Origin: Pseudomonadota bacterium
Lineage (GTDB): Bacteria; Pseudomonadota; Alphaproteobacteria; Rhodobacterales; Rhodobacteraceae
NCBI GenBank assembly: GCA_038524325.1
Contig: JBCBIS010000001.1
Coordinates: forward strand, 3,150-67,149
Direction: 5' to 3'
Length of the DNA: 64,000 nt
The notes under the pieces were generated by a model that had not been told where the DNA came from, did not search any database, and saw only the letters and a program-made list of their open reading frames with translations. Below are positions 8,274-9,326 of this stretch, piece after piece (within the stretch, counting starts at the first letter, position 1; each line of letters begins with the position of its first letter). The translations under genes and the position numbers were made by a program.

Positions 8274-9326
8274 ATGGGCGCTGAGATACACGGACAGTCT
8301 TGCAGAGCAACCGGCACGGGCCGGGTTGAGGGGTCGGAGATCGTAGGCTCCGCCCCAGGGTTTCGCCGCGCCCTCTCGGCCGCACGCAAGGCGGCGAGCT
8401 GTTCCGCACCGGTTGTTGTCGGCGGCGAGACCGGCACGGGGAAAGAGCTGATCGCCCGCCTGATCCACCGGCTCAGCGACCGGGCGCGGCGCAGTTTCGT
8501 GCCGGTCAATTGCGGCTGCCTGCCCAGCGATCTGGTCGAGAACGAACTGTTTGGGCACGAGGCAGGCGCGTTCACCGGGGCGACCTCGGCCGCCACCGGG
8601 TTGGTGCACCTGGCCGATCGCGGCACCCTCTTTCTAGATGAAATCGATGCGCTGGTCCCGCGGGCGCAGGTGACCTTGCTGCGGTTCTTGCAGCAGGGCG
8701 AGGTGCGGCCGGTGGGGGGCGGTCCGACCTCTCGGGTCGATTGCCGCATCCTCGTCGCCTCCAACCGCCCATTGTTCGATCTGGTCGAGCAGGGGCTGTT
8801 CCGCGAGGATCTCTATTTTCGGCTGAACGTGTTGGAGGTGCATCTGCCGCCGCTGCGCGAGCGGCGCGAGGACCTCCCCGCCCTGGCGCGCCATTTCCTG
8901 ACGAAGTTCGGCAACGCCTATCGCCGTCGGGGACTGCGCCTCGAGGCCGAAGCGCTCGCCTGGATCGCGGCACAGGATTGGCCGGGGAATGTCCGCGAGC
9001 TGGAAAACCTGCTGCACCGCGCCGTCCTGATGGCGGAGGGGACCGAGATCACCCGCGATCTCCTCGCCCCCGACCCCTGCCATGTGCAGCACCTCGGCAA
9101 GACGCCCTGTCGGGCCCGGCCCTCCTCCGACCCGATCGAGCCCTTTGCCGACGCGAAGGCCAAGGCGATCGCAGCGTGGGAGCGGGGCTATCTGACCCGG
9201 CTGATGGACGTGGCCGGCGGCAATGTCACCGCCGCTGCCGCCCGCGCCGGCAAAGAGCGTCGGGCGCTGGGCAAGCTGCTTAAGAAACACGGGCTAGAGA
9301 CCGGCAGCTCAGGGCCCGGGGCTTGA
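8274..9326 (+). CDS. Sigma54-dependent transcriptional activator (bacterial enhancer-binding protein, bEBP) without an N-terminal sensory domain
   Basis: Walker A GETGTGKE, sigma54-contact loop GAFTGA, Walker B FLDEIDAL, and a C-terminal Fis-type HTH GNVTAAAARAGKERRALGKLLKKHGL. The AAA+ core begins about residue 23. An in-frame TGA at 8205-8207 limits any N-terminal extension to 22 codons. Confidence 0.9.
   Translation: MGAEIHGQSCRATGTGRVEGSEIVGSAPGFRRALSAARKAASCSAPVVVGGETGTGKELIARLIHRLSDRARRSFVPVNCGCLPSDLVENELFGHEAGAFTGATSAATGLVHLADRGTLFLDEIDALVPRAQVTLLRFLQQGEVRPVGGGPTSRVDCRILVASNRPLFDLVEQGLFREDLYFRLNVLEVHLPPLRERREDLPALARHFLTKFGNAYRRRGLRLEAEALAWIAAQDWPGNVRELENLLHRAVLMAEGTEITRDLLAPDPCHVQHLGKTPCRARPSSDPIEPFADAKAKAIAAWERGYLTRLMDVAGGNVTAAAARAGKERRALGKLLKKHGLETGSSGPGA

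Follow-up and report, generated by a model that had tools for sequence, protein, structure and literature searches.

The gene at positions 8274-9326 on the plus strand of the DNA analysed here (a stretch of 64,000 nucleotides, hereafter the window, from contig JBCBIS010000001.1 of a Rhodobacteraceae bacterium) probably encodes the pathway-specific σ54 activator of the adjacent extracellular contractile injection system (eCIS) locus. By its sequence, the 350-aa product of this open reading frame (ORF) is a bona fide bacterial enhancer-binding protein (bEBP). Pfam placed Sigma54_activat (PF00158) at aa 23-189 (E 1.9e-58, profile positions 1-167 of 168) and AAA_lid_14 at aa 195-266. The arginine fingers, sensor I and sensor II are present (arginine-finger block FREDLYFRLN, aa 176-185; sensor II PGNVRELEN, aa 237-245), with N164, R177, D179, R183 and R241 invariant in the family alignment A1. 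Within the GAFTGA loop, G98, A99, T101 and A103 are invariant in the same alignment and G102 is conserved to at least 90%, F100 being replaced by Y in several relatives. The NCBIfam profiles for NorR, AtoC and PspF align to the protein through their own C-terminal ends, and PF02954 matches several of its relatives. The initial annotation, made from the sequence alone, had described an AAA+ core that starts at about residue 23 and carries Walker A, GAFTGA and Walker B motifs, followed by a Fis-type helix-turn-helix (HTH); the Pfam matches and motifs bore this out, the HTH by a weak match. It had also held that a TGA at 8205-8207 excludes any hidden N-terminal sensor. This TGA is indeed in frame, with 8274 as the next start, and a tblastn search with the ten N-domains of longer relatives against the whole window found no remnant in 7878-8273 and nothing consistent elsewhere. 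A hidden or split N-domain was ruled out by these two results.

The minus strand from 34509 to 9309 holds, by Pfam analysis of its ORFs, a complete eCIS operon, in which Phage_sheath_1C, Phage_T4_gp19, Phage_base_V, Phage_GPD, GPW_gp25, Pvc16_N and AAA stand together (Table 1). As known here from its genes, the locus belongs among the extracellular contractile injection systems of the Afp/PVC-like kind. The activator gene and the last eCIS gene are convergent and overlap by 18 nt (9309-9326); the latter encodes an eCIS_core (DUF4157) protein, which is also found at the 3' end of the eCIS loci of the activator's relatives. We asked whether this adjacency is conserved. The closest database proteins are 57-77% identical to the activator, and all eight of those with readable flanks (P0002, P0003, P0007, P0012, P0014, P0016, P0018 and P0027, spanning the same range of identity) adjoin eCIS_core and/or DUF6519-fibre genes, that is, the 3' end of an eCIS; on the P0002 contig the fibre gene is the immediate neighbour. 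The co-occurrence across genomes that the initial annotation had proposed to look for was thus positive. The outer flank of the activator gene changes each time (Plug, ABC transporter, MGS, CutA1, amidohydrolase and NifU in the relatives, GCS2 in the window). The constant eCIS side together with the changing outer flank suggests that the activator gene marks the border of a mobile eCIS unit. P0028, at 52% identity, is not adjacent to an eCIS, which limits the eCIS-linked clade to about two dozen clusters at 90% identity. From the opposite end, we searched species-representative genomes with the sheath protein and obtained four loci (L009-L012), of which L011 shares a contig with P0015 (in a metagenome-assembled genome (MAG) of Kiloniellaceae) and L012 with P0018 (Amaricoccus tamworthensis). 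On the Amaricoccus contig the activator and sheath genes bracket ~27 kb, as they do in the window.

The window and L009-L012 formed the five eCIS loci in which we compared the region upstream of the sheath gene. The window has a single σ54 consensus match without mismatch, 25.2 kb from the activator gene, so that gene and promoter bracket the operon, as had been claimed. In each of the five loci a σ54 promoter precedes the sheath ATG by 75-87 nt, and it matches TGGCAC-N5-TTGC at 10 of 10 positions in the window, L009, L010 and L011 and at 9 of 10 in L012 (Amaricoccus). No further 10/10 match was present in any fetched locus, and no sensibly positioned σ54 promoter was found near the effector/fibre genes or near the activator in L003-L008.

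Upstream of this promoter, each of the five loci has a palindrome of the form GGGTC-N6-GACCC at -97 to -104, without mismatch in the window, L009 and L011 but degenerate in L010 and L012, and a second site at -76 to -79; the second site is a near-palindrome in L010 and L012 and also in L013, a more distant locus described below. The spacer that holds these candidate upstream activating sequence (UAS) sites is otherwise unalignable across the loci. Its A-rich part between UAS and promoter (34610-34640) may be a site for integration host factor (IHF) or a bend site; the strict IHF consensus was matched between UAS and promoter only in L009. In random 150-nt windows from the same loci, a palindrome with at most one mismatch was found at a frequency of 0.015 and a perfect one at 0.0019; at the promoters examined the corresponding counts were 7/7 and 4/7. 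Five perfect palindromes occur in the ~300 kb of fetched DNA, and four of them lie upstream of σ54-type promoters. In the window a second perfect GGGTC-N6-GACCC, at 32382-32397, lies inside the operon, 13 nt before a GTG at 32369, and no σ54 promoter follows it; this occurrence is compatible with chance and may be a chance match or an auxiliary binding site.

Two distant relatives of the activator, P0028 (locus L013) and P0032 (locus L014), have an almost identical HTH, GGNVT.AA..AGKERRA.GKLLKK, recognition helix included, and both have the palindrome next to their own genes. In L013, GGGTCACGCTCTACCC lies 78 nt upstream of the σ54-like promoter TGGCGCATAACTTGC, beside the P0028 gene. In L014, the σ54-like promoter TGGCATGAACATCGC beside the P0032 gene has GGGTCATTTATGACCC and two more such sites upstream of it. 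This shared HTH and palindrome is the best support for GGGTC-N6-GACCC as the candidate binding site of the activator family, which we infer it to be. P0028 is a long-form protein, and the promoter in L013 (11395-11662) heads an operon that includes a DUF6345 protein. P0032 is a sensor-less relative of 330 aa (50% identity), with three GGGT-N-ACCC-type palindromes and the σ54-like promoter directly after its gene (L014 10993-11260). Downstream of it, at L014 17519-19264, there is an integrase fragment with a phage-type sheath and tail-chaperone cluster, which may be another tail-like particle under a similar switch.

Next to the question of what the activator controls stands the question of how it came to lack a sensor. 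The five closest proteins, the window's own included, are 349-373 aa long, and the next relatives, at 452-464 aa, carry an N-terminal extension of ~130 aa. Pfam gave no match for this extension even at E 10, and no Response_reg. Its profile, compared with the PDB, matched receiver domains with a best E of 5e-4, and receivers, that of NtrC1 among them, made up most of the 50 top matches. The N-domain of the long relatives has Gly at the position of the phospho-acceptor Asp (consensus VVLLG) and Ala at that of the conserved Lys (F..APW), so that, with Response_reg also unmatched, input from a histidine kinase is not expected. An AlphaFold model of P0015 (75-sequence alignment, pLDDT, the predicted local distance difference test score, 90.3) consists of a (βα)5 domain followed by a long α5 helix (108-136), and its best PDB matches in Foldseek were the two-domain, inactive-state structures of NtrC4 (3dzd) and NtrC1 (1ny5), over ~390 columns. 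This receiver fold and long helix, present in the nearest long relatives, are absent from the window protein. A neighbour-joining (NJ) tree built on the shared core showed the short proteins, five in number and diverged to 66-77% identity, as monophyletic and nested within the long clade, which points to a single loss of the N-domain. The upstream spacers in L001 (369 nt) and on the P0003 contig (250 nt) are empty of an N-domain, and on three contigs there is not enough room for one upstream of the short gene. On this tree and the predicted fold, the sensor-less state is a derived one, a recent loss of a non-phosphorylatable receiver-fold N-domain in one five-protein sub-clade. The activator itself is, as far as its sequence places it, a member of a small and as yet unnamed clade of alphaproteobacterial bEBPs, which accompanies this eCIS lineage and whose ancestral N-domain was such a receiver fold, joined to the core by a long helix. 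A far wider bEBP family, represented in alignment A6 (75 proteins of ~450-480 aa, 36-90% identical to P0015), has this Pfam-invisible pseudo-receiver, with its motif EF..WPC...EL..RL.RL, and a near-invariant HTH.

The receiver of NtrC1 and DctD represses assembly, and its deletion leads to constitutive activity; in positive-mode activators of the NtrC type, loss of the receiver abolishes activity. The short protein corresponds to the receiver-deleted form of the first kind, and by analogy with constitutive NtrC1 and DctD it is probably active whenever it is made. What, then, would limit it? A predicted σ70-type promoter precedes the activator gene, and its palindrome TTGCGAATGCCGCAA and hexamers form a block of ~55 nt that was kept in L001/L002 while the remaining spacer diverged. 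The block was not found upstream of the long-form relatives. The palindrome block (8117-8163) may be the operator of an upstream regulator, and control through the amount of activator, by way of its own σ70-type promoter, is the simplest model, simpler than an anti-activator. A terminator-like hairpin at 8067-8051 on the minus strand lies just past the 5' end of the activator gene and is not conserved in L001; between the converging activator and eCIS_core genes a terminator is absent. Given the convergent overlap and this lack of a terminator, read-through from the operon could run antisense over the entire activator gene, and negative feedback on the activator by such antisense transcription is a speculative addition.

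An alternative, put forward in the initial annotation, is that the short protein is constitutively active in the manner of PspF or HrpR/HrpS and is held in check in trans by a dedicated anti-activator, possibly encoded by one of two small ORFs of the operon (23863-24153 or 26946-27236). The sensor-less architecture is real, and of the known sensor-less bEBPs, PspF is under control in trans by PspA and HrpS by HrpV. Neither small ORF belongs to a Pfam family, and a structural inhibitor encoded by the eCIS is conceivable, as the activity of VasH responds to the tube protein Hcp in a type VI secretion system (T6SS) (PMC13584744). However, both small ORFs are syntenic in L009-L012 (at 41-94% identity for 23863-24153 and 61-92% for 26946-27236), and these loci include L011 (Kiloniellaceae, P0015) and L012 (Amaricoccus, P0018), whose activators are full length. 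Kept beside long activators, the small ORFs do not track the sensor-less state; they behave as structural or assembly genes, that is, lineage-wide components, and the place of 23863-24153, with the gpV spike on one side and gp25 on the other, is one where a small protein of the baseplate or spike tip would be expected. As specific anti-activators the two ORFs were ruled out by this conservation. Moreover, the Pfam scan of ORFs of the window revealed no PspA-like gene or other anti-activator family, a scan that very small or novel inhibitors would escape and that included no search aimed at HrpV or HrpG, and among the neighbours compared no conserved partner gene stands on the outer side of the short activators. 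An inhibitor encoded in the operon would also need the activator for its own expression. We consider an anti-activator unlikely. Thus, one half of the earlier proposal, a dedicated eCIS activator, stood (linkage 8/8, promoter and palindrome 5/5), while nothing pointed to the other half, its control in trans. The comparison with PspF and HrpR/HrpS was not supported either: the PspF models score far below their cut-offs, and the sensor-less state reflects the loss of a receiver-fold domain.

It is also conceivable that the activator is a neighbour by history only, with its true targets at σ54 promoters elsewhere and another bEBP serving the sheath promoter. bEBPs can act on several promoters, and 25 kb separate the promoter from the gene, which is convergent with the operon. 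Against this, the linkage to the eCIS 3' end was kept in eight of eight cases across changing outer flanks, down to 57% identity, the nearest relative outside an eCIS (P0028) has a σ54-like promoter with the same palindrome beside its own gene, and the 64-kb window holds no other 10/10 σ54 promoter, all of which makes a merely historical neighbourhood very unlikely. That the short gene is a decaying remnant, inactive or dominant-negative after a 5' deletion and leaving the operon silent, is extremely improbable, for although a domain present in all the nearest long relatives is missing, and such a loss would disable an NtrC-type positive-mode protein, NtrC1 and NtrC4, which the long relatives resemble, are of the negative mode, the short form is held by five diverged proteins in one clade, promoter and UAS are intact, and a dN/dS (ratio of nonsynonymous to synonymous substitution rates) of 0.18 over 347 codons, measured against the 75%-identical short relative in L001, together with the retention of all catalytic and σ54-contact motifs indicates a functional gene.

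Several observations weigh against a dedicated eCIS activator of the kind we favour. On the protein side, HTH_8 matched the C-terminal 58 aa with E 6.8e-4 and 19.8 bits, below the Pfam cut-off of 22, so that the HTH, although present, is weak. On the DNA side, the first UAS site is degenerate (at least two mismatches) in L010 and L012, and the palindrome is assigned to the activator by co-occurrence. The gene for σ54, rpoN, is not within the 64-kb window, and σ54 is assumed to be present in the genome from the conserved promoter. In L009 and L010 the contig or locus ends before the position of the activator, whose presence was seen only in the other loci; the window and L009 are also close relatives, so the five loci amount to fewer than five independent observations. 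The NJ tree carries no bootstrap values, and the σ70-type promoter block is common to the window and one close relative only (L001/L002). Finally, that the loss of the N-domain was activating (the NtrC1/DctD mode) and not disabling (the NtrC mode) is suggested by fold similarity and by the persistence of the short clade.

To our knowledge, most eCIS loci stay silent in culture, and apart from a few insect-associated models the triggers of eCIS production are largely obscure. In the model that we favour, DNA binding, activation, constitutive activity and control by abundance are the conditional steps. The activator would be made from its own σ70-type promoter at the 3' edge of the locus, and its Fis-type HTH would bind the two adjacent GGGTC-N6-GACCC-type sites, whose centres lie upstream of the sheath promoter, ~70-95 nt from its -24 element. 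The activator would then oligomerise, and ATP hydrolysis and the GAFTGA loop would open the closed complex of σ54 with RNA polymerase, a function to which promoter conservation and the candidate UAS point. From 34570-34585 the entire 25-kb operon on the minus strand would thus be transcribed, with eCIS expression set mainly by the amount of activator produced. A locus-encoded and probably signal-independent activator, with a defined σ54 promoter and a 16-nt enhancer motif, would be a concrete on-switch for a cryptic cluster; its over-expression could yield particles and so allow cargo and target to be identified. The link between σ54 and enhancer-binding proteins, known for T6SS, would be extended to extracellular injection systems, and the long and short activators offer a natural experiment on the role of the pseudo-receiver domain. 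A wider scenario, which we regard as rather unlikely, is that a new class of pseudo-receiver bEBPs governs the alphaproteobacterial eCIS lineage, with the N-domain sensing an internal cue such as the level of a particle component, in the way that VasH senses Hcp. This domain would have been shed in the clade of the window, leaving an activator that is always on and limited in dose by its own promoter and possibly by antisense read-through, so that production would be a self-limiting burst; the GGGTC-N6-GACCC family would be a general switch for phage-tail-like particles.

We compared the activator with described bEBPs. Among NCBIfam equivalogs none reached its cut-off; the best were NifA, RtcR, NorR and FlbD, all far below threshold, and the PspF models gave 224.2 bits against a cut-off of 443.55 (TIGR02974.1) and 189.6 against 529 (NF008622.0). 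Among solved structures PspF ranked behind NifA, NtrC1, ZraR and FleQ. The domain plan of PspF (Escherichia coli) and HrpR/HrpS (Pseudomonas syringae), an AAA+ core and an HTH with no sensor, is that of the window protein, which differs in being encoded by a single gene instead of the HrpR/HrpS pair and in owing its architecture to the recent loss of a receiver fold. The plan of NtrC1 and NtrC4 (Aquifex) and of DctD (receiver, long helical linker, AAA+ core and HTH) is that of the long relatives, whose receiver, unlike theirs, lacks the phospho-acceptor Asp and the conserved Lys.

Very probably, as judged from gene order and promoter, the activator is a cluster-encoded σ54 activator of a contractile injection system, in an arrangement that resembles those of VasH, Sfa2 and Sfa3. 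VasH (Vibrio cholerae T6SS) and Sfa2 (Pseudomonas aeruginosa H2-T6SS) activate structural and effector genes with RpoN (PMC13584744). Like the window activator they are bEBPs encoded inside a contractile-injection-system cluster, but theirs is a T6SS and not an eCIS, and they keep an N-domain (GAF in Sfa2, Hcp-sensing in VasH). The closest match in layout is Sfa3 of the P. aeruginosa H3-T6SS, which lacks a sensory (GAF) domain and, with a promoter of its own, stands at the end of its locus (PMC13584744). For Sfa3, control over its own locus is without demonstration, whereas in the window the operon is headed by a conserved σ54 promoter with a family-specific palindrome. The eCIS regulators described so far are of the GerE/LuxR, BTAD and RfaH types, proposed as master regulators (Geller et al. 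2021, PMC8213781); they too are encoded at the locus edge, but they belong to other families and to σ70-type transcription. That study does not discuss σ54 control; Sigma54_activat is confined to the supplementary tables, which list it as a 'Shell' domain of weak enrichment, with 49 genes in 4 phyla (odds ratio 1.59, p 0.04). Among the examples listed is Lcho_3032 of Leptothrix cholodnii, a gene of 1083 nt whose only domains are Sigma54_activat and HTH_8 and which stands directly 5' of an eCIS locus with another gene order (PMC8213781). An association of σ54 activators with eCIS is thus already contained in public catalogues, though not analysed there. Our literature search for σ54, RpoN or bEBPs jointly with eCIS found only papers on T6SS.

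Table 1. Features of the activator gene, its promoter, the sheath promoter region and the eCIS operon (positions in the window)
Feature	Position	Strand	Basis or remark
In-frame TGA capping the N-terminus; 8274 is the first possible start after it	8205-8207	+	ORF reading
Candidate σ70-type promoter of the activator gene: TTGAAG 8135-8140, 17 nt, CATAAT 8158-8163	8117-8163	+	Consensus scan; function inferred
Palindrome TTGCGAATGCCGCAA abutting the -35 hexamer of that promoter	8117-8131	+	Conserved with L001/L002
bEBP gene without sensor: 22-aa N-terminal stub, AAA+ σ54-activation core, lid domain, C-terminal Fis-type HTH	8274-9326	+	ORF, Pfam, NCBIfam, motif positions
Walker A GETGTGKE (aa 51-58)	8424-8447	+	Invariant in alignment A1
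GAFTGA σ54-contact loop (aa 98-103), exact	8565-8582	+	Alignment A1
Walker B LFLDEID (aa 119-125)	8628-8648	+	Invariant in alignment A1
HTH region GGNVTAAAARAGKERRALGKLLKKHGL (aa 315-341)	9216-9296	+	Almost unchanged across the wider family, including distant P0028 and P0032
eCIS_core (DUF4157) protein at operon 3' end	9309-11240	-	PF13699, E 1.1e-31
DUF6519/beta-helix fibre	11313-15926	-	Pfam
Three large proteins, baseplate or unknown	15945-23583	-	Pfam scan, no match
gp25	23480-23866	-	Pfam
gpV	24163-24879	-	Pfam
gpD	24879-25979	-	Pfam
LysM protein	25992-26261	-	Pfam
CIS_tube-like protein	26272-26949	-	Pfam
AAA ATPase	27233-29278	-	Pfam
Pvc16_N cap	29275-30417	-	Pfam
Tube	within 32108-32758	-	Pfam
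Sheath	32623-34509	-	Pfam
Predicted σ54 promoter TGGCACAGCTCTTGCT (-24 GG, -12 GC)	34570-34585	-	Sole zero-mismatch consensus in the window; 76 nt before the sheath ATG
A-rich spacer with conserved AAATCA-type element between UAS and promoter	34610-34640	-	ATCA columns invariant in alignment
Candidate UAS site 2, GGGTCAAACCCGGGCA	34649-34664	-	GGGTCA half-site starts 79 nt upstream of the promoter TGG
Candidate UAS site 1, perfect palindrome GGGTCGTCCGCGACCC	34674-34689	.	Starts 104 nt upstream of the promoter TGG

The 3' cargo region beside the activator is highly variable. In L004-L008, in L011 and on the P0027 contig it holds one to three eCIS_core (DUF4157) genes, some of them fused to Aspzincin_M35 or OmpA domains; one eCIS_core gene in L007 is on the strand of the activator, and one in L011 lies just upstream of the sheath promoter. 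To the left of the activator gene the window carries metabolic genes (GCS2, esterase, metallo-beta-lactamase and PQQ dehydrogenase).

At the other end of the locus, the segment 34720-34911 has a GC content of 33% in a window of 66% and is the lowest-GC stretch of the 64 kb. It sits between the candidate enhancer and a divergent G8/beta-helix gene (34912-38520), and it could hold a divergent promoter or a silencing or bending region. The neighbours of the eCIS on its 5' side (38528-45228) comprise a Crp/FNR-type regulator (42144-42899), a GT87 glycosyltransferase, an MscS-type channel and two unknown genes, and they are syntenic with the closely related MAG L009 only. Beyond them, 45372-49961 encodes an adhesin-like protein of 1529 aa with repeated Big_9, cadherin and SdrD_B domains, which is internally duplicated (identical tblastn matches at 46992-47210 and 47661-47879). 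Genes of a methylotroph-like character, for a PQQ-dependent dehydrogenase, PqqB/C/E-like proteins and a fused SoxY-SoxZ, lie at 2067-3863 and 53001-57205 and give some context for the lifestyle of the host.

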